A stretch of DNA of 56,090 nt from Prorocentrum cordatum. Its lineage: Eukaryota. This document shows, piece by piece, positions 10,982 through 34,116 of this stretch. Both the position numbers and the translations under genes were made by a program. Within the stretch, counting starts at the first letter, position 1. The number at the start of each line of letters is the position of its first letter. The stretch spans positions 62,001 through 118,090 of the forward strand of contig CAUYUJ010000113.1 of assembly GCA_963575745.1 (NCBI GenBank), given 5' to 3'. The notes beneath the pieces are model-generated. The model worked only from the letters and a program-made list of their open reading frames with translations, ran no database searches and had not been told where the DNA came from.

Positions 10982-11087
10982 CTTGTATAGTCTGATTGGT
11001 TGTAGACTGCAGGTTAAGTGGGAGGGGGTGTGGGCTCAGGTAGCCATTTTGGGTCCGTAGCGTTCGGCTCTGGCCGACGCGCGGGTG
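10982..11087 (+). repeat. split direct repeat A1 (106 bp)
   Basis: CTTGTATAGTCTGATTGG...GACGCGCGGGTG identical to 26245-26350. Confidence 0.97.
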
Positions 11088-11160
11088 TTCCAGGGGGCCG
11101 CGGGGCGGCCATAACCACAGCCGTGCTAGTCCGCGGACTAGGTAGCGCGCCTGTGGTGCC

Positions 11161-14100
11161 ATGGCTGTGGGCTTCCTGGGGGCGCACCTGATGATCTTGG
11201 TTACGGGCGGCGCTCTCACGGTCCAAGGGGCACTTGGCTGGCTGCCGTTCGGGCGCGGGGGACAGGAGGTCCCAGCGCCGACGCCGCCAGCCCTGCCCGG
11301 GCCGACAGCGCTGCCGGCAGGCGGTGGGGGGCGAGGCAAGGGGCGAGGACCGCCCGCCAAGCCCGCGCCTGCAGGGGGAAAGGGGCGAGGGCCGCAGGCC
11401 AAGCCCCCGGGGACGCCGGGCGTCCCACCGCCGCCGCGGTCAGGGTCGACTACAACGACCACGACCGCGGGCATCGGGCGCGTAGGCGAGGGCGAGCCCA
11501 CGGGCAGCCCAGCTACGCCGGCGTACGGAGGTAACAACGAGCCCACGGGCGCGCCTGGGCAGCCGTCCGCCCCGGGAAACCGGACGGGCGATGGTGAGCC
11601 TGACCTGCCGCGTGGGCTGGACGGGTATTGGGGGTGGAGTGGTTGGGTCCCGCACCTGCCCCATTGGTGGGCTGGCCGGAACGTACCCCCACCGCCGCCG
11701 CCGCCACCTACCCCGCCCCCGGAGGCGGGGCCGGGTCCCGGTTGGGGCTTCGCAGCCTGGGTCTTCGAGTTCGTGGGCTACGGAGCGTGGGTAAGCTCCC
11801 CCGACCACCCGGGCACGATCCGCACGAGTGGCGGATGGATTGGATCCGCCGTCGACCGCCTGGGCGTTAAGATGCTTGGGTACTGGTGGGAGACCGCGGT
11901 CCTATGCTTTGCCCTAGGCATTTTCACGTTCGTGTTGGGTGCCCTGGCTTTCATCGTCAACACCGCGGCCCAGCCTATGCTGTGGGCAGCCGGGGGACTC
12001 CGCTGGGCGTGGTACCAGATTACCCGGTGCTGCCAGCGACGCGGAGGCGATGGGCCCGGCGCCCATCTTCCCCCACCCCCTCCGACCCCCTTGCTGGTGC
12101 GCTGGCGCGGGCCGGGCTTGGGCGGCGTGGTGGAGACGGAGTTCTACACAAAGGGGGTCCGCGGCCGAGGGACCAATCGGGCGTACAACCACGTGCTTCT
12201 GCGTAAGCACGGGCAGGTGGCCCGCATCAGCTGCAACTTCGCGGACCGGTACCGACTGGACCGCCACGGGCTCAACATCAAGATCGGGCAGGTCCTGGGG
12301 TGCACCAGTCGCAAGTGGCGGCTGAACCTCGAGGAGACAGGGAATGTGCATCTATGTCGTGCCGTCGAGTGCGCCTCCTGTCCAGTGGCGCATCCCATGC
12401 ATGTCGACCAGTACGCGGCCATTGACCGCACACAGATCGTGGACTTGGCTGAGCACGGAAAGGCCACGGCCTGCCGGGCAGTCGGCGTGGGACTCCGGAA
12501 GGTGTTCGGGGTCGTCAAGTGGCTGCTTTGCTCACCCTGGTCGGTTCTCGGATGGCTGTGCCGGGGTCGGCCGGAGCCCCGCTACATCACCGACGCCACG
12601 GGCTATCGCCGCCTGGACATCGATTCGGAGAGCGAGGTGGAGGCGGAGGAGCGCCCCTGCCAAGCCGCACAAGTTGGGGCGCAGCTCGCGGGTGGCGCAC
12701 GCCCCCTCCAGCCGGAGGGGTGCGGCGACCGAGGGATGCAGGAGGCTACTGTTCTGCTACAGGAGGACGCGGAGGTGTCGGACGTCCCCCGGCCGGGGCA
12801 TTGTCTCAATGCACAGGTGCACCTCTGCGCCCACCATGCGCAGAAGTATCGGTCTACCCTGATCGGCCGCAAGTGCAGCCTCCCCACTTGTCTCCGCATG
12901 GCGAAGGGTAGCTGCGGGGGGGCCCCGATGTGCGGGGAACATCTCCGACGGGACGAGGGTCACACCGTGCGCGTCGAAGCGACGGTCCAACCTGGGATTC
13001 TCGGGGGCCTGCGCCGCCGCATGCGGGCGCGGGCTCCAAGCCCCGGCAGGGCGCGCGATTGGACTGCGCACGCCGCCGATGGGGTTGGCATAGCGCCCGG
13101 GCCGGTCTACCCCCCGCCTCTACCTCCCCCCGCTGCACCGCCACCGCCCGCCGTGGCCCCATCTGTCGATGTGGAGCCCACGGGGGCGCAGGCCCTAGCC
13201 TCTGGGCCGCAGCCGCGTCGCACACGCTCCGCGGAAGCAAGGGCCAACGGACGCTCACGGTCTGCCGACCGCGGAGCCCCGGGCGATCGGATCGCCCATC
13301 ACGGGTGGCTTCAGGAGCCCCTACTCGTGAAGGTCTGCCCGATACTTCCGGGCGACCCTCGGGGAGCCGAGGAGGCGTACGGCGCGCCCCCGGCGAGTCC
13401 TTGGTTTATTCTATTGGGAGAATGCGAGGGGCTCGACGTACGGGGCACTGGCGGGGACGCCCGACTTATCATCGGGACTAGCCTCGAGGGCGTCAGGGTG
13501 GAGGTCCCAGCCAGCGAAGTCGTACGGCACCCCCCTCCGCTGGAGGACGGGCGCTACCCGATAGATTGGATCAATCGGCTGCTGTACGAGGTCCCCCAAG
13601 GGGCTCGGGAAGTGGGGTTGCGTGTCATCGCCCACCACATCCCGCAGGATCTGCTGGCGATGTTACGCCAGGAGCAGTGGGACGGTGTGGACGTGGAAAG
13701 CGCGAGCGGCTGGAGGCGGCGCTACCTGACGAACACGGAGCGCCAGCAGCTGCAGCACGACCCGGTGCGCACACTCGGCCACCATCGGCGGGGCGGCGCG
13801 CAGGGGGCGCAGCCTGCGCCCGGGATGGAGGGCTTGCCCCGTCCAGCCCCCGTGGCGGCACCGTCGCGCTTGGCGGCGGCCGCCGCCGGCGTGAGCGAGG
13901 ATGCTGAGGAGCCCGACCCACTCGAAATGTTCATGGATTCCTTGCGAGCCGAGGATCTCAAAGGACGGGGGGGCCAAGCGGCGGCCCTCAGTGCATTAGG
14001 TATGGCCGCGGACCTGCTCGGGGTTCCGCTTGATCAGGCGGAACGGCAGCTGCGGCGGAGGGTCGCACAGGTGGCAGCGGCGGGCCCACTGGGGTCCGAC

Positions 14101-16245
14101 CTGGAGCGCGCCCTCGCGGATTTGGAGGATGCGCAGCTGGAAGCGCGCGCGCGGGAGCGTGCTGCGGCCGCCGACAGGGTTCCCCTGCAGGGCAGCCTCT
14201 CACGCGAGGGGTCGCGGAGTCGCTCGGCGCGGGGACGGGATCCCAGCCCGAAGCAGGGACCCCGACGCGAGCTCTTCGGGGCCATGCCCCCCATCCAACC
14301 CACGGGCCCACGACGGGGCTTGCTGGGTGATCGGGACCTGCTGGCACGCGATGGACGCGGGGGGGCCGCTCGTGGGGCCAATCCGCTCCTCGACGGGGCC
14401 TCGGTCCTTGGCCACCTCACTGGCCAGACGCCCCACGGGGGCGGCCTGGGTGGGGAGCGAGCTGGGGGCCCAGACGACGCCGGGGCGGCGGGCGCCCTGG
14501 GCGGGCTGACAGCCGAGGCCGAAGCCCAGATCATCGAGCGCCTGGATCGCCAGAACCGCCTCACCGAACGCCACGTCCTCGCCGCCGAGCGGCAGGCGCG
14601 GGCCACCGAGGGCGACAAGAAGGCCCGGGGCACCAGGGCAGGGATCGGTCGGGACGAGGAACTTGATCTTTACATAGCCCGGGGATGCAACACCTTCGTG
14701 GTTGAGGCCTGCGAGGGGATCACGGGGAAGGACTTGTTCGACTCTCTCAAGCGCATGTGTGCGCACTCCAAGAGCACGCTCAAGACGATCGGGTTTCCCT
14801 GCCTGGTTACCAACCGTGTGGCGCACGGCTACGCGGCGCTCGCCTTCGGGACGGGCCCTCACGACCTGGCGGTGGACGACTGCGTCCCCGCGCGTGACGA
14901 GGACTTCGATGGCTATCGGCTCCCTGTGGACGACAAGCTGGAGCCCCGCCAGCGGCCCGCCACCCACATGGCGACCTGGTTCAAGAGGGCCCGGTGCGAG
15001 ATCCAGATGTTCGAGTCCATCGTAGGGGTCGCACATGGGGCGGAGCGTCGGCGGTCGTTAGGGTTCTTGGAGGCGGCCTTCGAGAGGGACCCCTCGGAGT
15101 TCCCAGACCATTGGGTCAAGGATCTGTGGGAAGAGCTCCGAAGCACGTGGGTCGAGGAGTTACGGGAGCTGAGGCGTCGGCTCTGCCGAGAGCTCGACAC
15201 CGAGAACCCGAGGAGGGAGGACATCAAGTACATCCTACTCATGCCGGAGAACGGCTACGATTTGCCCCGAACGTTCGACCTCGGGGACCCGAACGCCTAC
15301 TACCAGCAGGTGGTCGTGCCCCGGCGCAAGGCCGCACTCACGCGCCTCCTCAATGGGCAGCTGAACGCCCACCTCACGAAGCGACCGCCCAAAGCGGGAG
15401 GGAGCGAGGAAATGGGCGATCCCCGGCCCACGGCGCAGGGGGATGACAGGCCCAAGGCGGGGGCTGGGCCCCAGCCGAAGGCGGGGCCCAAGGCGGGCAC
15501 CGGGGCCCCAGCGGGGACAGCCCCCAAGAGGGCGTACCCAGCGGGCAAGGAACTAACACGCCCGGAGCGTACGCGATCCGTGGCGCATGCGCCCCGCAAT
15601 AAGGACAACGTCCCTATCTGCTGGGGGGCCACCACGCACATGGGCTGCTCGCGGAAGGCTTGCGATTGCCCTAACTCCCATGACCCCATCAAGTCAACGC
15701 GCGGCTTGGACTACTCGGTAGTCATGCAGCTCACGAGGCGCGGGGGGCTCCTTGGGACGCCCCGGATCGATCCCAAGCAGGTGGATGGGATGATTGCGCA
15801 GCTGCGCTCGCAAGCCAAGGCAGCCGAGGCCGAGAAGGTTGGCGAGGACACCTCCCCACCTGCTGCCCCTGACTCCCAGAAGGAAAAGGGCCGTGGCCGT
15901 GGCAGCGGCTCGCGAGCAGCGGGCGACCCGGGCCCGGGGCAGGCCCCGGACGACTACACCGCGCTCCAGCTTACCGCGATGGAATCTGACCTCCGGGAAG
16001 CGGTTAAGGGCCCCGACTTCGGATGGCTCGAAGACCACGACCGCCCGCGCGCGGCGGCCACTTGGGACGCCCAGCCCGCGGGTGATGGGCCGGAGCTTCG
16101 CCTCAAACTCATGCAGGAGCTCGAATCCGAGGGCATCTTCGCGCCTCTGAAGGGGGCCGGCGAGTACTTGCAGAGCCACGTGCGCGGGCGCGTCTTGGGG
16201 GCGCGCCTGCGCGGGGAGCGGCTCACCCTGGAGCGAGCCCTCTAG
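11161..16245 (+). CDS. ORF1, 1694 aa Gag-like protein with N-terminal hydrophobic/TM segments, Cys/His clusters and C-terminal CCCH finger
   Basis: ATG 74 nt after A1; hydrophobic 11161-11244 and 11896-11958 (AVLCFALGIFTFVLGALAFIV); CCCH motif CWGATTHMGCSRKACDCPNSH at 15619-15681; lies upstream of RT. Confidence 0.85.
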   Translation: MAVGFLGAHLMILVTGGALTVQGALGWLPFGRGGQEVPAPTPPALPGPTALPAGGGGRGKGRGPPAKPAPAGGKGRGPQAKPPGTPGVPPPPRSGSTTTTTTAGIGRVGEGEPTGSPATPAYGGNNEPTGAPGQPSAPGNRTGDGEPDLPRGLDGYWGWSGWVPHLPHWWAGRNVPPPPPPPPTPPPEAGPGPGWGFAAWVFEFVGYGAWVSSPDHPGTIRTSGGWIGSAVDRLGVKMLGYWWETAVLCFALGIFTFVLGALAFIVNTAAQPMLWAAGGLRWAWYQITRCCQRRGGDGPGAHLPPPPPTPLLVRWRGPGLGGVVETEFYTKGVRGRGTNRAYNHVLLRKHGQVARISCNFADRYRLDRHGLNIKIGQVLGCTSRKWRLNLEETGNVHLCRAVECASCPVAHPMHVDQYAAIDRTQIVDLAEHGKATACRAVGVGLRKVFGVVKWLLCSPWSVLGWLCRGRPEPRYITDATGYRRLDIDSESEVEAEERPCQAAQVGAQLAGGARPLQPEGCGDRGMQEATVLLQEDAEVSDVPRPGHCLNAQVHLCAHHAQKYRSTLIGRKCSLPTCLRMAKGSCGGAPMCGEHLRRDEGHTVRVEATVQPGILGGLRRRMRARAPSPGRARDWTAHAADGVGIAPGPVYPPPLPPPAAPPPPAVAPSVDVEPTGAQALASGPQPRRTRSAEARANGRSRSADRGAPGDRIAHHGWLQEPLLVKVCPILPGDPRGAEEAYGAPPASPWFILLGECEGLDVRGTGGDARLIIGTSLEGVRVEVPASEVVRHPPPLEDGRYPIDWINRLLYEVPQGAREVGLRVIAHHIPQDLLAMLRQEQWDGVDVESASGWRRRYLTNTERQQLQHDPVRTLGHHRRGGAQGAQPAPGMEGLPRPAPVAAPSRLAAAAAGVSEDAEEPDPLEMFMDSLRAEDLKGRGGQAAALSALGMAADLLGVPLDQAERQLRRRVAQVAAAGPLGSDLERALADLEDAQLEARARERAAAADRVPLQGSLSREGSRSRSARGRDPSPKQGPRRELFGAMPPIQPTGPRRGLLGDRDLLARDGRGGAARGANPLLDGASVLGHLTGQTPHGGGLGGERAGGPDDAGAAGALGGLTAEAEAQIIERLDRQNRLTERHVLAAERQARATEGDKKARGTRAGIGRDEELDLYIARGCNTFVVEACEGITGKDLFDSLKRMCAHSKSTLKTIGFPCLVTNRVAHGYAALAFGTGPHDLAVDDCVPARDEDFDGYRLPVDDKLEPRQRPATHMATWFKRARCEIQMFESIVGVAHGAERRRSLGFLEAAFERDPSEFPDHWVKDLWEELRSTWVEELRELRRRLCRELDTENPRREDIKYILLMPENGYDLPRTFDLGDPNAYYQQVVVPRRKAALTRLLNGQLNAHLTKRPPKAGGSEEMGDPRPTAQGDDRPKAGAGPQPKAGPKAGTGAPAGTAPKRAYPAGKELTRPERTRSVAHAPRNKDNVPICWGATTHMGCSRKACDCPNSHDPIKSTRGLDYSVVMQLTRRGGLLGTPRIDPKQVDGMIAQLRSQAKAAEAEKVGEDTSPPAAPDSQKEKGRGRGSGSRAAGDPGPGQAPDDYTALQLTAMESDLREAVKGPDFGWLEDHDRPRAAATWDAQPAGDGPELRLKLMQELESEGIFAPLKGAGEYLQSHVRGRVLGARLRGERLTLERAL

Positions 16246-19200
16246 GAAGCCGTGGACCGAGGCCATCGGGGTCTCAGCAGCGAGGCAGCCGACCTGCATG
16301 AGGCGCTTAGCTGCGCCGCAGGATACGTCACCGAGGGCGGGGCCGAGGTTGGCCCGGTTGCGTGGGACACCGACGGGCTAATAGGCCGCGGGTCCTATAC
16401 CTTCTGGGACGGGGACACCCGCATCCAGTGGGACTTCATCGACTACCGGGACCGCCTCGGCCCTACAGAGGAGATGGGCCAGGCGATGGGCCTGGAGGTG
16501 GGCGACGCCGAGGAGCGGCAGTGCCTGCTACTGCACGTGGCTGCGGGTGTGCTCCTGCTACGCGCGGGCGAGGGCACAGGTGAGCCCAGCCCGGACGCGG
16601 TGCAGCAGTTGGCCGCGACGTATCGCCATGCACTATGGGAGGAGGCCCATGAGGCCCTGCGGGCCCTGGGCGACTCCCCACCGTGGATCACGGCCCTGGA
16701 GGCCGATGTCCGCTCCTACGTCCATGATGCGGTGCACCCGCACCACGACAAGGACTATCGCTGCCTGGCAGCATGCCCCGTCGCCGACCTCGACGCCGTC
16801 ACGCTCCAGGTGCACCGTGTCAACGGCAGTGGGCGCCTATGCGTGGACCACCTAATGGGGACGGGTGTCGGCGCGGAGGATCACGTAATTCCGCTCCTGA
16901 TCTGGCGTGGCCATATGCGCGCCTTGCGCCCACGCTCCCACGCGGAGGCGGCGGCCCTAGGCCAGCGCTGGGGGCACGCAGGACGCCTGTCCCGCGAGAT
17001 CGTAAGTGTCGGCTGGCGCGAGATGCTCGATGAAGGCCCGGACGTTGAACCCACCGTCCCGGGCAAGAGCGCGCCCTGCACCCACTGCAAGGCAGCGGAA
17101 GGTCGGGCGGGCCGCGCAGTGGGACGCGCGCCAGCCTCGTTCGGGGAACATCCAGCCGACGTCCAGGCACGCCTCCTGGAGGCGAACGCGATGCCGATTC
17201 GACACGACCCCGCGTTCGCGTACGGTTTGATCGCCCAGGAGGTGTACGCCGGTTCGGGAAATTGGTCGGCCGCGCTTCGCGCCGAGGGCATCCGGGTGCT
17301 GGAGCCGATCGAATATTACGACGACCCCCTCCGAGAGTCCGGCCCACGGCCGGATCATGACACCCTCGACCCAGCGGTTCGCGCGCGCCTACAGGAGGCC
17401 GCACGGACCCCCATGGGCCCCGACGTGGCCAACGTTTGGTGCTGGGGTACCCCGTGTGGCTCGCACACCGACCTCGGGCTCATGACCCAGCCGGGCGGGA
17501 CCCCGCAGGGCACCCGCACGTGGGAGCACCCCGAGGGGGATGGCTCCAAAGAGTTCGAGCGCGTGGGTAACAGCCACACACAGTTCACGTGCGACACCTG
17601 CCGCATCCTACACGACGCCGGCAAGGAGTTTCTCATCGAGTCCTCCTGCCCCTCGGGCCGCTACCCCAAGATTTGGGACCAGGCCCCGATGCACGAGCTG
17701 CGTCGAGCGACGGGGGCCATGATCGTCCCGATCCACATGTGCGCCTGGGGTAAGGCCCCGTCCGACGCGCCAGAGAGCCGCTATCGCAAGGGCAGCTGGT
17801 GGCTCGTCAGCCCCCGGCTGTACCTGCACGCTCTGCTGTTGGCGCGACGTTGCCCACGTGACCACCACCACGTCGAGCTGAAGGATCACGTGCCGGGCTC
17901 GGGCATTAAGCGCACCAAGGAGGCGCAGGTTTGGGCCCCCCGCCTTTGCGCCGCGTGGGCAAAGGTGTTGAAAGGGGCCTATCACCGCTGGTCGGTGAGC
18001 CAACTGCGTCGGCAGTTGGCGCCTATATGGGAGGATGGCCCGGGGGCGTCCCCCAAAATCGCCCGGGCGGAGGCGCCCGGGCGCCTGCAGGGCGTCGACT
18101 TCACTGGAATCGAGCGCCTGCAGGCCTCAGGGGACGGCTCAAAATGCGGTAGGCTTAGCCCAGCCATGCACCGAGCATTGGCGGGGCTTCCAAAGCCCCC
18201 ATTGGGCAAGGCACAGGGGGAGGTGAGTGCGGGCAAGACTCGACCCCCTTGCGAGGATCCGGCCAGAGATATCGCGGAGGACCTCGACGGGTGCAGCCCG
18301 GCGGAGCTGGCCACGGTCTACCTGACCTTCTGCACGGAGCACCCTGAGTACGACCCCGAAGCCATGCGGACCCTGGTGGGGCTGGGGGATCAGCTCCTCC
18401 AGCGGACGGGGTCCCTGAAGGAAGCGGCCGCGCTGCTTAGGCGCGCGCGCCACGAGCGCCTAGGCAACCCCCTTCGGGGTGTCCTGGGGGACAAGGTGCG
18501 ACGGTGTTTAAGCCGAGAGCACTTCGAGTACGTCCGGGAGCTAGCGGAAGGGGGAGCCTCCGCGCGGCGGGGCGCGCCGCGGAGGCGCGAGCGAGCCCAG
18601 CCGTACCCCAGCGTGCGAGCCCACATCGACGAGGCCTACCAGAAGGTATGGGCGGATGTGACCTGGGGGATCGTCCTGGTGGCTTCCCAGGCGGCAGAGG
18701 GTTTTCTGACGGAGCTGGTGGAAGCCCCCCTGGGGAGGGTACCGAAGCAGCTACCGGACAGGACCTTGTCGTCCGAAGGGCGTATGATCCACGCGATGCT
18801 CTCGGCCAACGCCGCCACACACAAGCGCGACCACCCGCCTGCCGTCCAGCCACGCCATCGGCAAGTGGCGAGGACGGCGGTATGGCATCGCGCGCGCCAC
18901 CCCGGAGCGCGCCTCCTCTGCGCCAAGCGGGACGTCTCGCGGGCCTTCAAGTGGCTGGACATCGCCCCGGCGGACGTCGGGGACTTTGGCACCTCATTGC
19001 CGGGGGCCCACGCTGGCATCGAGGGGGACGTCAGAGTCGTTTACCTAGCCATGGTGTTTGGGTGGACGGGAGCCCCAGGCAATTACATGATGCTCGCCCT
19101 GGCGGCGAGGGAGCTCCACGAGAGCTATCGGCCTGGGGAGCCGCACTGGCACGACACCACCCACTTCCACTCGGAGTGGCTCATGGATGACCCTGTGGTG

Positions 19201-22200
19201 GTGGAGCCCGACATTGGGGTCCGACCGTGGATGGCCTGCGACGCATTGGATGCCTCCATACGTGAGGTGTTTGGGTCCGAAGCAGTGAACGTCAGCAAGA
19301 GGGACGCCGAGGGGGAGCCTTCCACCACGCAGATTATCTGGGGGCTCAGTATGGACTTCGAGCGCGAGCGAGTTGGACTCCCGGAGCCCAAGGCCATGAA
19401 GATGCGCTTCCTACTGGCGGAGCCGGAGCTGAGCTTCGGCTGCCGCATGGTCCGGCTGCGAACCGCGAGGGAGCTAAGTGGGCTCGGCCAGTTCTGCGCC
19501 TGCGCAGCTCCAGCCCTGAGCCTGGAGCTCCCAGCGGTCCACCGGATGCTGTCGGGTGACCCAGGTCAGGCCTACGTCCATCCGCCGGGCGACCCCGAGA
19601 TGGTAGAGGCTGCGTGGGACGATTGGCACCAGACCCTGGATTGGCTGCGCGTCTGCTTTGAGATGCCGGTCGAGGGTAACTTCGAGACCTCCTTCGAGGG
19701 CCTGCTAGGCCTTCGCGAGGCCCTCGCACTCCCGGGGGCGCTCGGCAAGCTGCGCTGGCTGGGAGGCGATGCCACCCTGGATCGGATCGGTGCGCTGGAC
19801 TGGTCCTCGCGCGAGTACATCGTGGCGGAGGCGGCTCCCTATCTGGAGACGCTCCGCTCCGCCCCTGGGGTCACCTGGCAGGGGGAGGGGGAGATCATCG
19901 CGGTGGTCGAACTACTCTGCCTGATAGCCTTGGCGGCCGAGAAGGGCCCGGACTGGTTCCAGCTGCTATTGCCGTACGTCACTGACAACAGCAATGTCAG
20001 CCGCTGGCTGCGACGCCGCCGGGCACGGAACGCGGTGGCGCGCCACCTGCTTCGAGTCCTGGCCATGCTGGAGCTACGGTACAAGTTCCGGGTCCTGGAC
20101 GGGCTTTACTTACGGACTTACCACAACGAGCTGGCCGACTTCATTACTCGTGCCACGGTGGAGGAGGTACGCCAGCGGATGGCGGAGGCCGGATGGACCG
20201 AGCTGTCGCCGGCAGCACCGTGGGGCGAGCTGGTGGAGGAGGCCGCCCAGCGCGAGCTGCGGATGCCAGGAGACGACGGGCCCTGGCGCGCGGCTGCGCT
20301 CCAAGTCAAAGGAGCCCGGGAGGCCCTACCACGCTACGCCCCCCTGCAGGTCGAGGGGGCGCGGCTGCTGGAGGTGGGAACCGCGTGGCCCCCCTTTGGG
20401 GAGGCATGGGAGAGCCTCGGTGGGTCGGCGCTGCTAGCGCCGTGGGATGTCGGTGACCGATGGGACCCGGACGACGGGGACCATCCCAAGGACCCCACTG
20501 GGGCCCCACGGACCCGCTGGCTGTGCGTGTCACTATCGGAGGACCCCGGTGGACGCGAAGCGACGGGCCTGGAGCGGCTACTGATCACCATTCGGCCACT
20601 GGCCGTGTTGCTCGACGCCCCCGTCAACTACGCTGCAGTGCGGCTAGGGGCGCGCTTACGGCGCCTCGGCTATGTGGCACTCTCCCCAGAGACGCGCCTA
20701 CTGTGCACACACTTCGGCGACGTCACGGCACGCGCGCGGGCGGTCCAGGTTTGGGGTTGCGGAGAACGGGTTCGGGCACCGAGCCCCATACCCCCCCTGG
20801 GGCAGCCCTGCGTGGAGCCACGCGGCCTCTGCCAGCTCTGGAAAGAGGCAGGGCGGCCACCGCTGGATGAGCTCCGCCTGGACCTCAACAACGGCACCTT
20901 GCTCGTGGACCCTCGGATCTCGACGACGGGGGATCGCATGATGCCCTGGCCGCGCGGCACATGGCAGCCCGCGGGAGGCGGGCGGGCCCAGCGCGTGGTG
21001 ATTCATGATCCGCGCGGGCCCTGCCATACGGCACGGGCGAAGCCCGACCCGTTGAAGGGCTATGCGAACACCCTGATCCTGGAAGGGTCCGAGGGCGGCT
21101 GGACCGTGCGAGCCCTGCACCCGAAAGAAATCTGGTGCGCCCAGGGGGGCACGGCGGAGCTGTGGGATGCCTTGGGCCTTGGAGGTACGCCGATCGCCGA
21201 GCGCATGCGGCAGGCCGCTCGTGCACTCCCGCGTCGCACGGCCCGCTGGGTGCTCCAGTGGGCGGAGCGCCTGCTGAGGCAGGCCGTAGAGGCAGCGAGC
21301 GCAGGCGAGGCACCCGGGGCGCGCGCTGGCGTCGGACCCGATCACGACCGACTCGCTAACGACGAGATGGTTAAGCTGTGGCTAAAGGCCTGGCTTCAGG
21401 CCCCCGATCGCCCAAGCGGGCCATTCGAGGCTGCGCTGGAGGCGGGGAAGACGACGGACGACGCCGCTCGGTTGGCGGACCAGCTCGACCCCCCTGCTAC
21501 CGCGCGGTCCACCGCAGCAGGGGAGGACGGGGCAGGCGGGGAGCGGGTCGGGGCGGTGACCTTCGCTGTTCCGGAAGGCGCGGGCATGCCCAGGCCAAGC
21601 GCCATGGACGGCGTGGGCGGCGAGGCTCGCCCCCCGCGCAAGGCCCGCCGGCGTGCCCGCAGCGCCCCTGCTCCCGCGCTGGTGAAGCCCGCCGCCTGGC
21701 GGTACGCCGGCGGGGGCGCCCCGAAAGGGATTCAAGGTGAACTCACCGACCCCCGCGAGCTGGATGCGACCGCCACCGAGGCGATGTTGGCCAAGCTTGC
21801 CGAAGGGACGCGGGCCAATTACAGCGCCGGGTGGCGTAACTGGGTACTCTGGCGGAGGCTCCGAGGCCGGAGCCCATACCTGCAGGGGGAGACTCGGGAC
21901 GCCCGCCTTACGGATGAGGATGACCTCATCCGGTATGTCGTGTACCTGTACAAGGTGATGAAGAGGCGGGCCACGACCATCCGCCAGCGCCTGTTCGCCA
22001 TTCGATATGCCCACACCCTGGCCGGGTTTGGGGATGTGACCTCCGATCGGCGCCGGCTCTGGACCACGATCGAGGGACTCCGCCGCTGGGACGGAAAGGC
22101 GAAACGGAAGCTGCCGGCCACGCCCCGGATGTTGCGCTGGCTCCGCGAGTACTTGTTCGCCCACGGGACGGCCACGCGCCGGGAGGCGACCATCCTATGG

Positions 22201-25200
22201 GCGGCGCTTATGACGGGGTACTTCTTCATGCTCCGCGCGTCGGAGTATTTGGTCCAAGAGGACCGCTCCTGGAGCATGGGACGGGTGGTGCGTGGGCAGG
22301 ACGTACAGGGGATGCGCGGGGGTACACCCAGCGCAAGGCTCAGCGACTGCGATGAGGTAGTACTGACGATCACGTCGTCCAAGACGGACCAGTTTAACGC
22401 AGGTTGCGTACGCAACCATTACCGCTCGGGGGTGGAGTTGTGTGTCGTGGACGCACTCGCCGACCTCCAGAGGGAGCTGCCGGACCGGTTTGGACGAGGA
22501 ACCGAGGCGGGGCTCCCCCTGTTCCGCCGGCCCGATGGCCACCCGATTATGCGGGAGGAGGTGCAGGGGCTCCTCCAACTCGCGGCTGCCGCCTGCGGCG
22601 TGGACGCAGGCCAGATGGGATCCCACTCCCTGCGCATCGGGGGCGCGACGGCGTTGTACCACGCCTGTCGCGACCTGGAAGCGGTCAAGAGGTTCGGGAG
22701 GTGGTCCACGGACGCCTTCCACGGATACCTCTGGGAGGACCATCGGCGTCAGGCTCCATTCGCCCGAGGCATGGCGGAGGGCCACGCCTTATTGGCCCCG
22801 GGCGCCCGCGGTGACGACGGCGCCGCGGCCGGCGCCCGCCCCGACCAGTTGGCCGGGAGCGACCCGCCCCAGTTTGGGAGCGACCTGAGGCCCTCGGAAC
22901 GCCCGGCCTGGGCGCCCGGGCGCCCCCCCTGGGCGCGCCCTTCGGCGCGAGCAGGGTCACGCACGGAGGGGGAAGGAGAGGAGGAGCTGGTGAGATACGA
23001 GCCAGGGCGAGGAGTTAACGGGCGTGTGGGGAAGCAGCAGGCGGGTCCCACGGGTATTCAGGTCAGGGCGGGGGCTTCGCGTTGTGGGGGTATCCCGGTG
23101 GACCTCTCGCCCTCGACCCCCCTTTCGCTACCGCTCCCGATCGCCCCAGGCACGCCCACCTCCTCTTGGTCCTCTCATCCGCAGCCATCTTCCACTCCAG
23201 AGCGAGGCACGCGAGCAGCGCGCGCACCCCAGCCTCGCGCGCCAGCCGCGCCTCCGCCCCGCGCTCCGGCAGCGTACATCATGGGATTCCTGGTGGGCCT
23301 GGTGGCCCCGGACCAGAGCAAGGCGCGTGGCCATGACTACAGCATCATGGCGGTGAACCCCCTCGGCGTCGTCGTCTCGGGGGCCGCGCTGTCGGACGAG
23401 CTCCGGAGTGCCGCCCACAACATCCTGTACACGGTGGTGAACGAGCTGGACAGCGAGGACCTCGTCGAGGTGGTCAACCACGACCACGAAGCAGCCCCGT
23501 GCATCGCGGCGGCTTGCTTGGCCGCGGGGGCGAGCGAGGACCACGGCCAGCTGGTGATCGTCGACGGCAAGCGGGGCGCGTGGGGGGTGGGCGCGGGGCC
23601 GAATATCAAGGTCCAGCGCCAGGCGGCCAAGCTGGCGCTCGCCCTGGCCCAGTTCCAGGGGCAGCCCATGCCGGAGCTCCGCGAGCTCTGCAAGCACAAC
23701 AGGGGGCTGCTCGACATGATGCGCACAGTGGACGCGGAGGCGGTCGTGGAGCTCACCGACGTGGACGACGCCTCGAGCAGGGGCGAGGGGAGGTCGACCC
23801 CAGCCCCGGTCCTCGAGGCGGGAGAGGACGCGGTCACCGCGGCGCTGGCGCGCGCGGCCATCCAGGCTGCAGCGCGGCGCCAGAGCAAAGGCGCTCCAGC
23901 GGAGCGCCCGCGGCCCGCGCGGTCCCCGGGCCAAGAGCGCCTCGCCGAAGAGGTCCGCAAGCGCGAGAGGCGCCCTGCGCCCTTGCGCTCGCCCTCGCGC
24001 GCGAGGCGCCGCGATCGCGAGCGCGATGCGCCTCGCGATCGCGGGCGCAGGGGACAGGAGGAGGAGGCCGTCTTGAAACCCAAGACGGGCGGCGCCCCCC
24101 CGAAGGCCGACATCGTGAAGCGTGAGGCCGTCCTGAAGCCCAAGAGCGGGGGGGCGCCGCCGCGGTCCTTCGAGGTGAAGACCGAGGTGGAGGAGGCGCC
24201 AGGCGCGGGGGACGGGCCGCCCCAGCGCCAGCCGCGCTCGAGGAGCCGCCGTAGGCGCAAGGAGGAGCAGCGCCAGGGCGCCCAGCAGCAGCCCAGTGAC
24301 CAGCACGACGAGGGCGAGTCCATCATCCGCATCGAGCGGGTACCGCACCACGTCGATGCCGAGGTGGTCAGGCAGGTGGTCGTGCCCTTTGGGGTCGTCA
24401 AACACATCGCCTTCCTGTACGACCACCGCCACAAGCGGGAGCCGTGCGTGCTGGTGGAGTTCCAGCGCCGCGCTGACGCAAAGCGCGCGCGGGAGTGCAT
24501 GAGGTCGAACTATCGGTTCTACAAGACGGACCCGTGCACGGTGGTCACGGAGTGGGCGAGCCGACCTCGCGGCCCTGACCCAGGCAGCGACGGGGAGGAT
24601 GGCCCGACCATCCAGCCGCCTGCCTGCCCGACGTGCGCACTCAAGATGCGCTGGAGCTCCTTTGACCCGGGAGACGGTTGGGGTTGCGAGATGTGCCCCG
24701 CGGGCGGAGCTAACAGCGGAGCCCTGCGGTGGCACTGTAAGGGGTGCGACGTGAGCTACTGCGAGGCTTGCCGCGTCGCCTTCGGCAAACCCAAGACGGT
24801 GGTGGAGAAGGCCCGGCGGAGCGGCCACACCGTGCGGGAGGCGCCGGGCCCCAGTGCCGGCCATGGAGAGCGCCCCAGCACGGGTGCCACGGGTGCGGGG
24901 GCTGAGGGGGACCGCCCGCCGGGCGATCTCAGCTGGCCCAAGCGTGAGAGGTCGCCCAGCCGCAACCGGCCCAAGCGCGAGAGGTCGCCCAGCCGCAGTC
25001 TGGCGCGGGACCCAGCGTGGGCGCGGCGCGGCGACACCCCTCCCGGCCGCACGCGGCGTAAGACCGGGAAGCACGCTGGGCAGCTTCGCGCTCCTCGCGG
25101 CGGCTGGTACGAGCAGGAGAAAAAGCGGCGGCGTGCTGCCGCCGCGGAGGCCGCCGCGGGCGGGGGTGGGATCCCAGCCTGGCGTGGCAAGGGCGCGGGC

Positions 25201-25476
25201 GACAAGGGCGGCAAGGGCGGCAAGGTCAAGGGCAAGCACTCCGGCAAGGCCGCCAAGGGCTCCAAGAGCGGCGGCAAGGGCGACAAGAGCGGCAAGGGCG
25301 GCCACTCCAAGGGCGACCAGGGCAGCCGCGGCCGGAGTGAGCGTGACTGGCCCAGCGCGGACGGTCGCGCGTCGAGGGGCGGCGATGGCGGCAGCCCCCG
25401 GGACCCCAGTGAGCGCGGCGGAGACCGCAGCGGAGACGAGAGCCGCGACCGCCAGGGGAACACGCCCTCCATCTAG
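16246..25476 (+). CDS. pol: ORF2 polyprotein (~3076 codons, in frame with ORF1): putative Cys protease, C5-MTase, RT, RNase H, dead C5-MTase-like domain, tyrosine recombinase, RNA-binding tail
   Basis: Uninterrupted frame from the TAG at 16243-16245 to the TAG at 25474-25476; motifs detailed in the domain features; first in-frame ATG is at 16474. Confidence 0.92.
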   Translation, partial: EAVDRGHRGLSSEAADLHEALSCAAGYVTEGGAEVGPVAWDTDGLIGRGSYTFWDGDTRIQWDFIDYRDRLGPTEEMGQAMGLEVGDAEERQCLLLHVAAGVLLLRAGEGTGEPSPDAVQQLAATYRHALWEEAHEALRALGDSPPWITALEADVRSYVHDAVHPHHDKDYRCLAACPVADLDAVTLQVHRVNGSGRLCVDHLMGTGVGAEDHVIPLLIWRGHMRALRPRSHAEAAALGQRWGHAGRLSREIVSVGWREMLDEGPDVEPTVPGKSAPCTHCKAAEGRAGRAVGRAPASFGEHPADVQARLLEANAMPIRHDPAFAYGLIAQEVYAGSGNWSAALRAEGIRVLEPIEYYDDPLRESGPRPDHDTLDPAVRARLQEAARTPMGPDVANVWCWGTPCGSHTDLGLMTQPGGTPQGTRTWEHPEGDGSKEFERVGNSHTQFTCDTCRILHDAGKEFLIESSCPSGRYPKIWDQAPMHELRRATGAMIVPIHMCAWGKAPSDAPESRYRKGSWWLVSPRLYLHALLLARRCPRDHHHVELKDHVPGSGIKRTKEAQVWAPRLCAAWAKVLKGAYHRWSVSQLRRQLAPIWEDGPGASPKIARAEAPGRLQGVDFTGIERLQASGDGSKCGRLSPAMHRALAGLPKPPLGKAQGEVSAGKTRPPCEDPARDIAEDLDGCSPAELATVYLTFCTEHPEYDPEAMRTLVGLGDQLLQRTGSLKEAAALLRRARHERLGNPLRGVLGDKVRRCLSREHFEYVRELAEGGASARRGAPRRRERAQPYPSVRAHIDEAYQKVWADVTWGIVLVASQAAEGFLTELVEAPLGRVPKQLPDRTLSSEGRMIHAMLSANAATHKRDHPPAVQPRHRQVARTAVWHRARHPGARLLCAKRDVSRAFKWLDIAPADVGDFGTSLPGAHAGIEGDVRVVYLAMVFGWTGAPGNYMMLALAARELHESYRPGEPHWHDTTHFHSEWLMDDPVVVEPDIGVRPWMACDALDASIREVFGSEAVNVSKRDAEGEPSTTQIIWGLSMDFERERVGLPEPKAMKMRFLLAEPELSFGCRMVRLRTARELSGLGQFCACAAPALSLELPAVHRMLSGDPGQAYVHPPGDPEMVEAAWDDWHQTLDWLRVCFEMPVEGNFETSFEGLLGLREALALPGALGKLRWLGGDATLDRIGALDWSSREYIVAEAAPYLETLRSAPGVTWQGEGEIIAVVELLCLIALAAEKGPDWFQLLLPYVTDNSNVSRWLRRRRARNAVARHLLRVLAMLELRYKFRVLDGLYLRTYHNELADFITRATVEEVRQRMAEAGWTELSPAAPWGELVEEAAQRELRMPGDDGPWRAAALQVKGAREALPRYAPLQVEGARLLEVGTAWPPFGEAWESLGGSALLAPWDVGDRWDPDDGDHPKDPTGAPRTRWLCVSLSEDPGGREATGLERLLITIRPLAVLLDAPVNYAAVRLGARLRRLGYVALSPETRLLCTHFGDVTARARAVQVWGCGERVRAPSPIPPLGQPCVEPRGLCQLWKEAGRPPLDELRLDLNNGTLLVDPRISTTGDRMMPWPRGTWQPAGGGRAQRVVIHDPRGPCHTARAKPDPLKGYANTLILEGSEGGWTVRALHPKEIWCAQGGTAELWDALGLGGTPIAERMRQAARALPRRTARWVLQWAERLLRQAVEAASAGEAPGARAGVGPDHDRLANDEMVKLWLKAWLQAPDRPSGPFEAALEAGKTTDDAARLADQLDPPATARSTAAGEDGAGGERVGAVTFAVPEGAGMPRPSAMDGVGGEARPPRKARRRARSAPAPALVKPAAWRYAGGGAPKGIQGELTDPRELDATATEAMLAKLAEGTRANYSAGWRNWVLWRRLRGRSPYLQGETRDARLTDEDDLIRYVVYLYKVMKRRATTIRQRLFAIRYAHTLAGFGDVTSDRRRLWTTIEGLRRWDGKAKRKLPATPRMLRWLREYLFAHGTATRREATILWAALMTGYFFMLRASEYLVQEDRSWSMGRVVRGQDVQGMRGGTPSARLSDCDEVVLTITSSKTDQFNAGCVRNHYRSGVELCVVDALADLQRELPDRFGRGTEAGLPLFRRPDGHPIMREEVQGLLQLAAAACGVDAGQMGSHSLRIGGATALYHACRDLEAVKRFGRWSTDAFHGYLWEDHRRQAPFARGMAEGHALLAPGARGDDGAAAGARPDQLAGSDPPQFGSDLRPSERPAWAPGRPPWARPSARAGSRTEGEGEEELVRYEPGRGVNGRVGKQQAGPTGIQVRAGASRCGGIPVDLSPSTPLSLPLPIAPGTPTSSWSSHPQPSSTPERGTRAARAPQPRAPAAPPPRAPAAYIMGFLVGLVAPDQSKARGHDYSIMAVNPLGVVVSGAALSDELRSAAHNILYTVVNELDSEDLVEVVNHDHEAAPCIAAACLAAGASEDHGQLVIVDGKRGAWGVGAGPNIKVQRQAAKLALALAQFQGQPMPELRELCKHNRGLLDMMRTVDAEAVVELTDVDDASSRGEGRSTPAPVLEAGEDAVTAALARAAIQAAARRQSKGAPAERPRPARSPGQERLAEEVRKRERRPAPLRSPSRARRRDRERDAPRDRGRRGQEEEAVLKPKTGGAPPKADIVKREAVLKPKSGGAPPRSFEVKTEVEEAPGAGDGPPQRQPRSRSRRRRKEEQRQGAQQQPSDQHDEGESIIRIERVPHHVDAEVVRQVVVPFGVVKHIAFLYDHRHKREPCVLVEFQRRADAKRARECMRSNYRFYKTDPCTVVTEWASRPRGPDPGSDGEDGPTIQPPACPTCALKMRWSSFDPGDGWGCEMCPAGGANSGALRWHCKGCDVSYCEACRVAFGKPKTVVEKARRSGHTVREAPGPSAGHGERPSTGATGAGAEGDRPPGDLSWPKRERSPSRNRPKRERSPSRSLARDPAWARRGDTPPGRTRRKTGKHAGQLRAPRGGWYEQEKKRRRAAAAEAAAGGGGIPAWRGKGAGDKGGKGGKVKGKHSGKAAKGSKSGGKGDKSGKGGHSKGDQGSRGRSERDWPSADGRASRGGDGGSPRDPSERGGDRSGDESRDRQGNTPSI
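16500..16930 (+). other. putative OTU/papain-fold cysteine protease domain
   Basis: ERQCLLLHVAAG (Cys 16522) and IPLLIWRGHMRAL (His 16912) resemble OTU catalytic Cys-helix and strand-His motifs. Confidence 0.45.
17224..17980 (+). other. C5 cytosine DNA methyltransferase-like domain 1 (catalytic Cys retained)
   Basis: Motif I-like EVYAGSG (17239), motif IV WGTPC (Cys 17455), motif VI-like FLIESS, then MCAWG..YRKGSWWL, C..HHHVEL, AQVWAPRLCAAWA. Confidence 0.7.
18730..19520 (+). other. reverse transcriptase domain (DIRS/Ngaro-type)
   Basis: KRDVSRAFKWL (~18925), AMVFGWTGAPG (~19050), LMDD (19180-19191), IWGLSMD. Confidence 0.92.
19750..20150 (+). other. RNase H domain
   Basis: GGDAT, IAVVELL, VTDNSNV, HNELADFITR: D-E-D-D acidic set. 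Confidence 0.88.
20365..21260 (+). other. C5-MTase-like domain 2, apparently inactive
   Basis: FGDVTARAR (motif VIII-like, 20713) and RALHPKEIWCAQG (motif IX-like, 21109); no FxGxG, PC or ENV (LLEVGT, LCVSLSED, LLDAP at the expected positions). Confidence 0.5.
21775..22740 (+). other. tyrosine recombinase domain
   Basis: N-terminal LAEGTRANYSAGW; catalytic residues MLRASE (R 22234), SKTDQ (K 22381), HSLR (22624), GRW, AFHGY (Y 22726). Confidence 0.95.
24322..24558 (+). other. RNA recognition motif (RRM)
   Basis: IIRIERVPHHVDAEVVRQVVVPFGVVKHI (RNP2, helix, FG) and PCVLVEFQRRADAKRA (RNP1, helix). Confidence 0.75.
24625..24771 (+). other. 8-Cys zinc finger (four CxxC pairs, ZZ-like)
   Basis: CPTC..WGCEMC..RWHCKGCDVSYCEAC. 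Confidence 0.7.
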
Positions 25477-25570
25477 GCGTGGAGCCCCCCCCGTACCCCG
25501 ACGCCAGCGCCCGCGGCATCGCGGGCGCGGGCTGAAGGCGGCGGCCTGTGAGTGAGCCGGCCCTCCTCTC

Positions 25571-25721
25571 AGCCTACCGTGCGCAGGTGGCGCCTGCGAT
25601 CCTTTGAGCCTACGGTACGCAGGTGGCGCCTGCGATCTTCTTTCTTTTAGCCTACGGTACGCAGGTGGCGCCTGCGATCTTCTTTCTTTCAGCCTACGGT
25701 ACGCAGGTGGCGCCTGCGATC
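25571..25721 (+). repeat. four 31-bp hairpin-containing direct repeats in the 3' UTR
   Basis: AGCCTACGGTACGCAGGTGGCGCCTGCGATC (copy 1 has 2 variants) at 25571, 25607, 25649 and 25691; pyrimidine spacers of 5-11 nt. Confidence 0.95.
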
Positions 25722-26040
25722 CTCTCTCTTTGGAGGAGTTTAACTTTGCACGCACGTCGCGTGCTTCCTGGACCCGGCCGTGCCGCGCGTCTTGCGCGCC
25801 GTGCGGTCGGGGCCACACTTGCGCTCTGCGCCCGGCGCATCGTGCGCCGTCCCCTTTCGGTTCTTTTGCGCGCATCGCGCACGCGCCGCGCCCGCGCTCT
25901 GGGTGCGCGGGGCGCGGAAGGCCTCAAGGTTGCAGGCAAGTGGCCGCGCGCGCGAGGCTCTTGCAGCCTCTGGTTCCGCCCTCGCACTCGGGCGGGGCGT
26001 CCCCGCGCGCGCGGCTGCGTCTTTCTTTTCTCATGGCCGA

Positions 26041-26247
26041 GCGGCCGCAGGCGTGCCAGAGCGCGAGCGCGCGGGCCGTCAGGGCCCACGCGCTCGCGTT
26101 GAGCGTGGGGCCATCAGGGCCCACGCCCAGGCGGAGATGCGCGTCGCCACGCTGCCATGAAAATACCATCGCCCTGTCCTGGTCCCCCTCTCGTCCCCTC
26201 CTCTCCTCCTCTCCCTCCGTTGAGTGCACGCGTATCTCACTTAACTT
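26041..26247 (+). repeat. split direct repeat B1 (207 bp)
   Basis: Matches 26382-26588 except G26101 vs T26442. Confidence 0.97.
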
Positions 26248-26350
26248 GTATAGTCTGATTGGTTGTAGACTGCAGGTTAAGTGGGAGGGGGTGTGGGCTC
26301 AGGTAGCCATTTTGGGTCCGTAGCGTTCGGCTCTGGCCGACGCGCGGGTG
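26245..26350 (+). repeat. split direct repeat A2 (106 bp)
   Basis: Identical to A1; overlaps B1 by CTT. Confidence 0.97.
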
Positions 26351-26381
26351 CCCACCCACCCCGCTTTGCTCCCAGACGCCT

Positions 26382-26588
26382 GCGGCCGCAGGCGTGCCAG
26401 AGCGCGAGCGCGCGGGCCGTCAGGGCCCACGCGCTCGCGTTTAGCGTGGGGCCATCAGGGCCCACGCCCAGGCGGAGATGCGCGTCGCCACGCTGCCATG
26501 AAAATACCATCGCCCTGTCCTGGTCCCCCTCTCGTCCCCTCCTCTCCTCCTCTCCCTCCGTTGAGTGCACGCGTATCTCACTTAACTT
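26382..26588 (+). repeat. split direct repeat B2 (207 bp), 3' terminus
   Basis: Copy of B1 ending CACTTAACTT; 31-bp spacer from A2. Confidence 0.97.
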
Positions 26589-33489: not shown

Positions 33490-34061
33490 CCGTTGAGCTC
33501 TGCGCGTGGTGCGAGACGGCGGAGGCCGTCAGCCTCGCCTCTTTCAACGAACTTGCCAAGTTCGCGAGGGGTTGACGCCGCTCGCGGTGACCTTGGACCG
33601 GGCGTGACGGACCTCGTGAACCGGGCGGGCATGCGGGCCGCCGCGCACCTCGAGAGCTTCATTGACATCGTGGGCGCGCGCGATTTGGTTATGCTGCAGC
33701 TCCTCAACATGGCCAAGCGCGACAAGACCGGCTTGCGCCAGTTTTTTCACTGATGAGGGCTCCATGTTGGGCTTGCTGATTGACGCGACACAAACATGGG
33801 CCATCCTTAACGAGACAGAGGACATGGGGAGGCACATCGGGTCCGTGGTCGAGCTGCCCAGCCAGAGCAAGACGGCGAAGCAGGCCTTCAAGAAGATTAA
33901 GAAGGACACTGCCACCTCGCACCTCTCGGCCTTCGCGAGGCAGGATATCAACTTCTGAAACGGCACCCGTGTCGCCCAGGAGCTCGTCGACCGGGCGCGC
34001 CAGGCATGCCTCGAGGAGGCGCCCTTGCCCAGGTGCATCGAAGGCCTCGCTCGCGGGGCCC

Positions 34062-34116
<55 letters not shown>

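Follow-up and report, generated by a model that had tools for sequence, protein, structure and literature searches.

Two predicted C5-methyltransferase folds, one without its catalytic loop, in the polyprotein of a DIRS-like retrotransposon from Prorocentrum cordatum

Why would a retrotransposon keep two cytosine methyltransferase folds in one polyprotein when one of them has lost the residues that do the chemistry? The question is raised by a 56,090-nucleotide stretch of the dinoflagellate Prorocentrum cordatum (GenBank assembly GCA_963575745.1, contig CAUYUJ010000113.1, positions 62,001 to 118,090; hereafter the window), which holds a DIRS-like element of 15.6 kb. A first-pass annotation, made from the letters alone, had proposed that two C5-methyltransferase-like domains flank the reverse transcriptase (RT) and RNase H of this element, one with a catalytic Cys and the other dead. 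The analysis reported here bears this out: predicted structures and profile-profile comparison (hhalign, 93.4% and 94.6%) place both segments in the C5-methyltransferase fold, the first keeps the catalytic Cys and Glu, and the second has no catalytic Cys and is catalytically dead. Below we set out the evidence for each domain, ask how the two are related and how they are distributed among relatives, weigh what they might do, and place the element among the methyltransferase-bearing retrotransposons already known.

Two C5-methyltransferase folds around the reverse transcriptase

Both domains lie in the second open reading frame of the element (ORF2, 16246-25476, 3,076 codons), which, like every feature below unless stated otherwise, is on the forward strand; residue numbers refer to ORF2. 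A word-indexed search with ORF2 residues 300-1700 gave three long proteins among 7,999 scored candidates, and the same query run for shorter proteins gave 14 among 8,000. The three long relatives (P0003, P0004 and P0005) are 40-42% identical to the window from residue 687 to past the recombinase, and their match to domain 1 is at 43-48%. Five short EukProt fragments labelled Pyramimonas sp., a green alga, are 93-99% identical to the window, and two of the five lie within domain 2. With ORF2 residues 318-1517 as the query, an exhaustive HMMER search reached 1,741 representatives at E<=1e-3, and the best 150 of these 1,741 were covered. Among the 164 relatives stored, 32 match domain 1 by phmmer and 33 match a hidden Markov model of domain 2.

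Domain 1 (amino acids 318-600, 17197-18045) is a compact C5 cytosine methyltransferase-like segment, identified from an AlphaFold 2 model, structure matches, hhalign and motifs. The three motifs that had been read in its frame by the first-pass annotation are all present: YAGSG as motif I (amino acids 334-338, 17245-17259), directly after the strand predicted at model residues 12-16; GTPC as motif IV (amino acids 401-404, 17446-17457), with its Pro-Cys pair (P403-C404) after the strand at model residues 80-83; and ESS at the place of motif VI (amino acids 465-467, 17638-17646), with E465 ending the strand predicted at 144-150. An acidic residue after strand 2 is also kept, and an RYR (R512-Y-R514, 17779-17787) stands ahead of a strand, its equivalence to motif VIII being read by eye only. 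In a 28-row alignment of the window and 27 relatives, the Cys is present in 27 rows, the Pro-Cys pair in 24 and the Glu in 27, and P0020, a relative labelled Polarella glacialis (a dinoflagellate), has Ser for Cys. In the alignment used for modeling (alignment A1), whose rows are 31-49% identical to the window, the Cys is invariant (22/22) and the Glu is found in at least 90% of rows. Since the Cys and Glu are conserved across these alignments, they are features of the family and not chance occurrences in one sequence. At motif VI the window has Ser for Asn, and its relatives read ENT, ENS or ESS.

The AlphaFold 2 model built on alignment A1 reached a pLDDT of 93.8 and a pTM of 0.91. Foldseek returned 51 matches in the Protein Data Bank (PDB) at E<=1e-3, the best at E 1.7e-5, and all rows among the matches listed are C5 methyltransferases. 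VIA-align placed M.HhaI at Z 12.8 (root-mean-square deviation 3.7, 202 aligned residues) and ZMET2, DIM2 and DNMT3A/B at about 12; all 50 entries among the matches listed are C5 methyltransferases, DNMT3A-DNMT3L structures being among them. A search of 48,161 chains that is independent of Foldseek likewise filled ranks 1-10 with C5 methyltransferases (Z 12.1-10.3). In a library of viral models the best match was an unnamed 210-amino-acid protein (BFVD A0A0A0RJX0, E 3.2e-7, TMt 0.80), followed by named cytosine methyltransferases of phages and giant viruses, including a 218-amino-acid enzyme from Tetraselmis virus 1 (E 8.8e-5, TMt 0.59). Domain 1 resembles such compact viral C5 enzymes (about 210-220 amino acids) in being small and in having no large recognition lobe. 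The viral proteins, in contrast, are free-standing, and their identity to domain 1 is just 11-15%; the likeness is one of predicted structure.

Profile-profile comparison points to the same assignment. Against a home-made canonical C5 profile of eight sequences (Escherichia coli Dcm, five phage enzymes and the PF00145 domains of relatives P0094 and P0076), hhalign gave alignment A1 93.4% (E 2.5e-7) over 89 columns that cover motifs I-IV, pairing YAGSG with FAGIGG (motif I in both) and C404 with the Cys of Pro-Cys-Gln; the alignment ends upstream of motif VI. Four controls, namely the RT-RNase H alignment, the N-terminal region and the two domain alignments reversed, gave 0.1-0.2%. In the ESM Atlas, one auto-named C5-methyltransferase cluster was within the top three for domain 1, which we treat as a lead only. 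Over domain 1, the window and the three long relatives share 42-51% identity, a level like that of RNase H and slightly below that of RT.

Two further observations concern this domain. A strongly conserved Cys/His cluster (C499, H540 and H542), for which we know of no equivalent among the canonical motifs, sits at the position of the recognition lobe and may be a metal site. At position 17464 the contigs of other sequencing runs agree with one another against the window, changing H407, three residues after the catalytic Cys, to Tyr; the relatives mostly have Phe or Tyr there.

Domain 2 (amino acids 1355-1690, 20308-21315) follows RNase H and is a C5-methyltransferase-fold pseudoenzyme according to its AlphaFold 2 model, its match to M.HhaI and hhalign. 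The model, built on an 18-row alignment (alignment A2), has a pLDDT of 84.0 and a pTM of 0.85. Foldseek ranked M.HhaI first (E 5.7e-14, TM 0.61-0.64), then M.MpeI, a Dcm-like enzyme, M.HaeIII and Dnmt2, and VIA-align gave M.HhaI a Z of 23.4 (root-mean-square deviation 3.8) over 280 of 327 residues, with model residues 9-332 on chain residues 3-327. An alignment so near to complete argues that the predicted model holds the whole two-lobed fold, recognition lobe included. Against the canonical profile, hhalign gave 94.6% (E 6.4e-8) over 184 columns, which begin at a D-x-R-G motif, take in motifs VI and VIII as well as the recognition lobe, and end at motif IX. The first-pass annotation had rightly put this domain after RNase H and noted that it lacks Pro-Cys, but its view that only motif VIII/IX-like segments survive was too narrow, as the whole M.HhaI fold is predicted, with D1457 and R1496-x-R1498 in place.

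What domain 2 has lost is the catalytic loop. In the window, three residues (S-E-D) lead from strand 4 (model residues 69-75) to the invariant D1433, whereas canonical sequences have at least 16 residues in this loop, Pro-Cys-Gln among them, which makes the loop of domain 2 shorter by about 13 residues or more. The segment SLSED (20530-20544) replaces the Pro-Cys loop, and not one of the 18 aligned sequences has a Cys in the strand-4 loop. The loop that would bind S-adenosylmethionine (SAM) reads G1378-T-A1380 in the window; by eye, some close relatives keep G-x-G and the distant ones have none. P1399 stands where the acid of motif II is expected, an equivalence also read by eye from the alignment. 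Other parts are retained: by eye, an acid is found at the place of motif VI in 18 of 18 rows (D1457 of the window, in DAP at 20614-20622), and the segment FGDVTARAR (20713-20739) keeps the invariant G1491 and R1496-x-R1498. Domain 2 is thus unable to use the covalent Cys mechanism of C5 methylation. It is 27-34% identical to the three long relatives.

A different identity for domain 2, that of a Dam-type (N6-adenine) enzyme, is very unlikely given the positive C5 assignment. All 50 structures among the matches listed are C5 enzymes, and Pfam gave no Dam family. In the ESM Atlas, 29 of the 30 clusters nearest to domain 2 are PF00145, again a lead only. We also note that at position 21188 the contigs of other runs agree against the window, changing T1648 to Met, the residue found in EukProt fragment P0019.

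Relation and distribution of the two domains

The view that the two domains differ in style is supported, and independent captures would fit. Compared with each other, alignments A1 and A2 gave 0.3% in hhalign, with no detectable relation between the domains, and each aligns to its own half of the canonical profile. Domain 2 resembles M.HhaI and has a large recognition lobe, and domain 1 is compact and closest to viral proteins of about 210 amino acids. When each was compared with the single sequence P0094 instead of the multi-sequence canonical profile, hhalign gave less than 1%; the signal appears only with the latter. No match came from a word-indexed search that took the P0094 DNMT region as query and covered shorter proteins, and no profile of DIRS-borne DNMTs was obtained that way.

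The distribution of the domains was read on a quick IQ-TREE of 47 RT-RNase H regions with a midpoint root, in which the window belongs to a 14-row clade (SH-aLRT 100). Within that clade, both domains are found in all five rows that can be judged for both (the window, the three long relatives and P0020), and P0081 has no match to domain 2 in 455 downstream residues. Domain 2 is scattered across a 39-row clade of the same tree. Outside the 14-row clade, domain 1 is seen in P0024 only, and it is absent from P0032, P0033, P0048 and P0030, in all of which the upstream sequence is sufficient to judge. Beyond the 39-row clade, P0094 and P0076 have canonical PF00145 domains (PNCQ/PPCR and ENV) after RT-RNase H. 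In the same position P0027, P0037 and P0030 have a Tpt1/KptA RNA 2'-phosphotransferase (PF01885, E 1e-11 to 1e-24), and the slot after RNase H seems especially prone to the exchange of domains.

Because the two domains show no sequence relation, are of different kinds and have different distributions on the RT-RNase H tree, the data fit independent origins. Of the two, domain 2 seems to be older, domain 1 having been gained later by a sub-clade. The distribution suggests that the slot after RNase H may once have been filled by an active DNMT whose catalytic loop was then lost, before domain 1 was added.

Possible roles of the active-looking and the dead domain

Taken as a whole, the evidence is best explained, in our judgement with moderate confidence, by a DIRS-like polyprotein that joins an active domain 1, methylating the complementary DNA (cDNA) of the element, to a dead domain 2 that handles nucleic acid. 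Domain 1, about 280 amino acids long and N-terminal to RT, would most likely be an active SAM-dependent C5 methyltransferase, and it could methylate newly made cDNA of the element, by analogy with what has been proposed for dinoflagellate DIRS-Dnmt3 elements. In the paper on those elements (PMC5890265), DNMTs of retrotransposons methylated CG de novo, and self-methylation of cDNA is proposed. Domain 2, with its catalytic loop deleted and its SAM motifs degenerate, is unable to methylate by the C5 mechanism. Its most likely role would be that of a nucleic-acid-binding or scaffolding module of the replication or integration complex, because its DNA-facing parts are kept (Arg-x-Arg, the recognition lobe and the motif IX helix) and it is retained across a wide clade. 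The slot that it fills is the one that holds the Dam-like domain in classic DIRS elements and a canonical DNMT in some distant relatives.

Several results weigh against this explanation. A PF00145 profile search was negative for both domains at any meaningful threshold, so their identity as methyltransferases rests on predicted structure and profile-profile comparison. Neither domain matches PF00145 at E<=10 (domain 1 as whole ORF or as a piece), and the family is touched by only 2 of the 22 relatives of domain 1 (best E 0.07) and by 1 of the 18 of domain 2 (E 0.14). Nothing relevant was found in PDB sequences by phmmer of domain 1 or by the profiles of alignments A1 and A2, and a tblastn search of 50,697 phage records with each domain gave no hit at E<=1. 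For domain 1, generic Rossmann proteins follow close behind the C5 enzymes (MAT2B at Z 10.2, short-chain dehydrogenases at up to 9.9) and the Foldseek TM is just about 0.4; with so small a margin, the fold alone is not decisive. Domain 1 also has ESS where ENV is canonical and Gly/Thr where Gln would follow the Cys, and it lacks a large recognition lobe. In its alignment G-x-Y-x-K is invariant and W-D nearly so (G471-R-Y473-P-K475 and W477-D478 in the window; GRYPK.WD), motifs for which we know of no counterpart among those of canonical C5 methyltransferases. For these reasons the substrate of domain 1 could be something other than DNA, or its activity could have been lost. Domain 2, for its part, is the least conserved folded part of the polyprotein, and the order of events suggested above depends on a tree that was built quickly and rooted at the midpoint, and on gene models of which some may be incomplete. 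The stretch is present in sequencing runs of 15 studies, none of which is on record as RNA. Finally, the CpG observed/expected ratio of the element is 0.96, with no sign of depletion or methylation-driven decay; we treat this as uninformative, and PMC5890265 found CpG depletion likewise uninformative for its DIRS elements.

These doubts bear on what domain 1 acts on, if it acts at all. A Dnmt2-like enzyme that methylates RNA, with the transcript of the element or its primer as candidate substrates, would agree with the presence of Dnmt2 enzymes among the structural matches of domain 1 and with its lack of a large DNA-recognition lobe, and RNA methylation has been raised for a DNMT borne by a long interspersed nuclear element (LINE) in PMC5890265. 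We nevertheless find it improbable, as the best matches are DNA enzymes (M.HhaI, DNMT3A/B, DIM2 and ZMET2) and the closest predicted structures are the compact viral cytosine DNA methyltransferases. Small recognition regions, moreover, are also a feature of DNMT3 enzymes. It is also rather unlikely that both domains are non-catalytic relics, domain 1 having a structural or binding role in an element that methylates nothing. The extreme divergence from canonical enzymes, the want of any Pfam match, ESS for ENV in the window, Ser for Cys in P0020 and the undepleted CpG would all be expected of relics, but all 22 rows have the Cys, and the Glu and other motif residues are nearly invariant, at identities of only 31-49%, a pattern typical of a maintained active site, and domain 1 is as conserved as RNase H.

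The remaining alternative concerns domain 2. DNMT3L is an inactive paralogue that partners DNMT3A/B, and domain 2 resembles it in being a C5-methyltransferase fold without catalytic residues beside an active-looking one. Domain 2 could accordingly be the DNMT3L-like partner that the first-pass annotation suggested; it would then dock on domain 1 of its own or of another polyprotein and stimulate or target the methylation by domain 1. The presence in one polyprotein of two copies of the fold, one active-looking and the other inactive, speaks for such a partnership, as does the window's clade, where every row judgeable for both domains (the window, P0003, P0004, P0005 and P0020) has both. We consider it unlikely, since domain 2 is widespread without domain 1 (in P0032, P0033 and P0048, for instance), so that its function cannot depend on domain 1, and since, unlike DNMT3L, it keeps the full recognition lobe, of M.HhaI type and with Arg-x-Arg. 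A wider scenario, which we hold to be speculative and unlikely in its entirety, is that a large DIRS-like clade of dinoflagellates and green algae has long kept the loop-deleted pseudoenzyme as a DNA-handling module that recognises or flips cytosines in cDNA or target DNA, that a sub-clade later captured a compact virus-like C5 methyltransferase, and that the pair now works as a DNMT3A/DNMT3L-style machine that domain-profile screens do not see.

The element, its copies and its known counterparts

The whole element spans 10982-26588 and is a DIRS-like retrotransposon, putatively autonomous and of the tyrosine-recombinase kind, with termini of the PAT/Ngaro type. Its split direct repeats comprise two families, each in two copies that are 100% identical in a repeat search: repeat A1 (10982-11087) and repeat A2 (26245-26350), and repeat B1 (26041-26247), which overlaps repeat A2 by 3 bases, and repeat B2 (26382-26588). 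The resulting order, A-coding-B-A-B, is that of DIRS elements; the legend of Fig. 1e in PMC5890265 gives such a layout for PAT/Ngaro-type and Symbiodinium DIRS elements. The GC content is 0.70 in the element and 0.61 in the left flank. Three metagenome contigs of 15.4-15.8 kb, about the size of one element, hold open reading frames of 4,805-4,809 codons (P0005, P0181 and P0184).

Between the repeats, a frame of 1,699 + 3,076 codons (4,775 in total) is interrupted solely by one in-frame TAG (16243-16245), which separates ORF1 from ORF2. The gag-like ORF1 (11161-16245, from the first ATG to the TAG) matched no Pfam family, and its C-terminal 460-560 amino acids are 40-43% identical to the segment just upstream of the ORF2-like part in the three long relatives. 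In these relatives the ORF1-like and ORF2-like parts form a single continuous protein with Leu at the position of the TAG. The stop may have arisen in this copy by a recent nonsense change, or it may be one that is read through. ORF2 opens with a conserved N-terminal region (amino acids 35-290, 16348-17115) that is 40-43% identical to the three long relatives and includes the motifs RQCLLLH, HHDKDYR and GHMR; a Pfam search of this region gave no match, and it may be a processing protease.

The region between the two domains (amino acids 800-1320, 18643-20205) is a putative RT-RNase H, an assignment based on motifs, similarity to the relatives and a weak PF00078 match in one of them (P0103, E 4.3e-4). 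It has an LMDD motif (19180-19191) and D/E/D columns that are conserved in the alignment, and RT and RNase H are 49-60% and 50-52% identical, respectively, to the three long relatives. The window itself matches neither PF00078 nor PF00075, even at E<=10 on separate pieces, and a profile of 15 relatives found no RT among PDB sequences. According to PMC5890265, the RTs of such DIRS elements fit Pfam seeds poorly. Further downstream, the tyrosine recombinase-like region (amino acids 1839-2170, 21760-22755) matches PF00589 at E 4e-4 and 20.7 bits, under the 27.1-bit cut-off; it is 51-56% identical to the relatives, whose own PF00589 scores of up to 25.7 bits are also below that cut-off. Pfam on the whole ORFs found no integrase family.

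Some 900 codons follow the recombinase (22756-25476). This C-terminal extension holds an RNA recognition motif (24328-24507; PF00076, E 9.9e-5, 22.6 bits, over the 20.7-bit cut-off) and a weak B-box-like zinc-finger match, and it seems to be lineage-specific, because P0003 stops about 100 residues past its recombinase. On the minus strand, a stop-free frame of 931 codons (23128-25923) lies antisense to the 3' part of ORF2 and is probably an artefact of composition, given its GC content of 72%. Elsewhere in the window, 34017-34499 is a long GAC-rich, triplet-like repeat tract that is Asp-rich in one frame, and at 54220-54859 a unit of about 151 nucleotides is present four times in tandem.

The element is young, as its repeats are identical, and it is multi-copy, as the contig depth summed over it is in the hundreds (word depth in two runs). 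Of the 40 best-supported differences that separate the window from contigs of four runs, 30 are synonymous, against 29% expected from the same base changes placed at random; this comparison covers the best 40 differences, with a further 985 outside it. The polyprotein taken as a unit is thus under purifying selection, a result that holds at that level and not for each domain. Domain 2 has two of these differences (one synonymous) and domain 1 has five (four synonymous).

Among known systems, the closest is SymbioDIRS-Dnmt3 of Symbiodinium, DIRS elements with a DNMT in Pol that come in two architectures differing in domain order, as described by de Mendoza et al. 2018 (PMC5890265). The likeness extends to the A-coding-B-A-B repeats, the divergent and Pfam-poor RT, the C5 methyltransferase within Pol, the proposed self-methylation of cDNA and a dinoflagellate host, P0020 being labelled Polarella glacialis. 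The differences are that here one polyprotein has two C5-methyltransferase folds, one of them without the catalytic loop; that neither is detectable with PF00145, by which the Dnmt3-clade enzymes of SymbioDIRS are recognised; that the recombinase shares a frame with RT and both domains, whereas in SymbioDIRS-Dnmt3 it has an ORF of its own; and that near-identical fragments of this element are labelled as coming from a green alga, Pyramimonas sp. The element is therefore a variant of the DNMT-bearing DIRS elements already known. Our literature search, which on dead or Cys-less DNMTs in DIRS elements led only to PMC5890265 and a 2026 preprint (10.64898/2026.05.21.726589), found no DIRS-like element with two C5-type domains of which one is a conserved pseudoenzyme, with the proviso that the data on DNMT conservation in Fig. 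2b and the supplements of PMC5890265 could include degenerate domains after RNase H.

Two other groups of elements invite comparison. Classic DIRS1/PAT-like elements have a Dam-like N6-adenine domain after RNase H (Goodwin and Poulter, as cited in PMC5890265; 10.64898/2026.05.21.726589), which agrees with what the first-pass annotation had said of them. They too are tyrosine-recombinase retrotransposons with a methyltransferase-type domain directly after RT-RNase H, but domain 2 differs from their Dam domain in having a C5 fold (M.HhaI at Z 23.4) and in being catalytically dead. Long terminal repeat (LTR) retrotransposons of Euglena and of Cymbomonas, a prasinophyte green alga (PMC5741210), combine DAM and DNMT in one polyprotein, and their DNMT groups with known eukaryotic families as sister to DNMT4 (preprint 10.64898/2026.05.21.726589). 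In these, as here, two methyltransferase domains share one retrotransposon polyprotein; however, they are Gypsy/chromovirus elements with one adenine and one cytosine enzyme, while the present element is DIRS-like with two C5 folds, one of them a pseudoenzyme.

Methyltransferase-bearing retrotransposons are a recent and small topic. The element described here indicates that deeply diverged cases escape Pfam screens, since an active-looking enzyme and a conserved dead copy are both invisible to PF00145. To our knowledge, all known examples were found by Pfam-type domain screens, and because both domains of the present element would have been missed, methyltransferase-bearing elements are probably under-counted. 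The retention of a pseudo-methyltransferase across a wide clade raises the question of what use a base-flipping fold without its chemistry has in retrotransposition, and a live-looking and a dead C5 domain in a single polyprotein offer a simple, expressible system in which to study cooperation between enzyme and pseudoenzyme outside animals. The element would also bear on how the methylome of its algal host handles new insertions.

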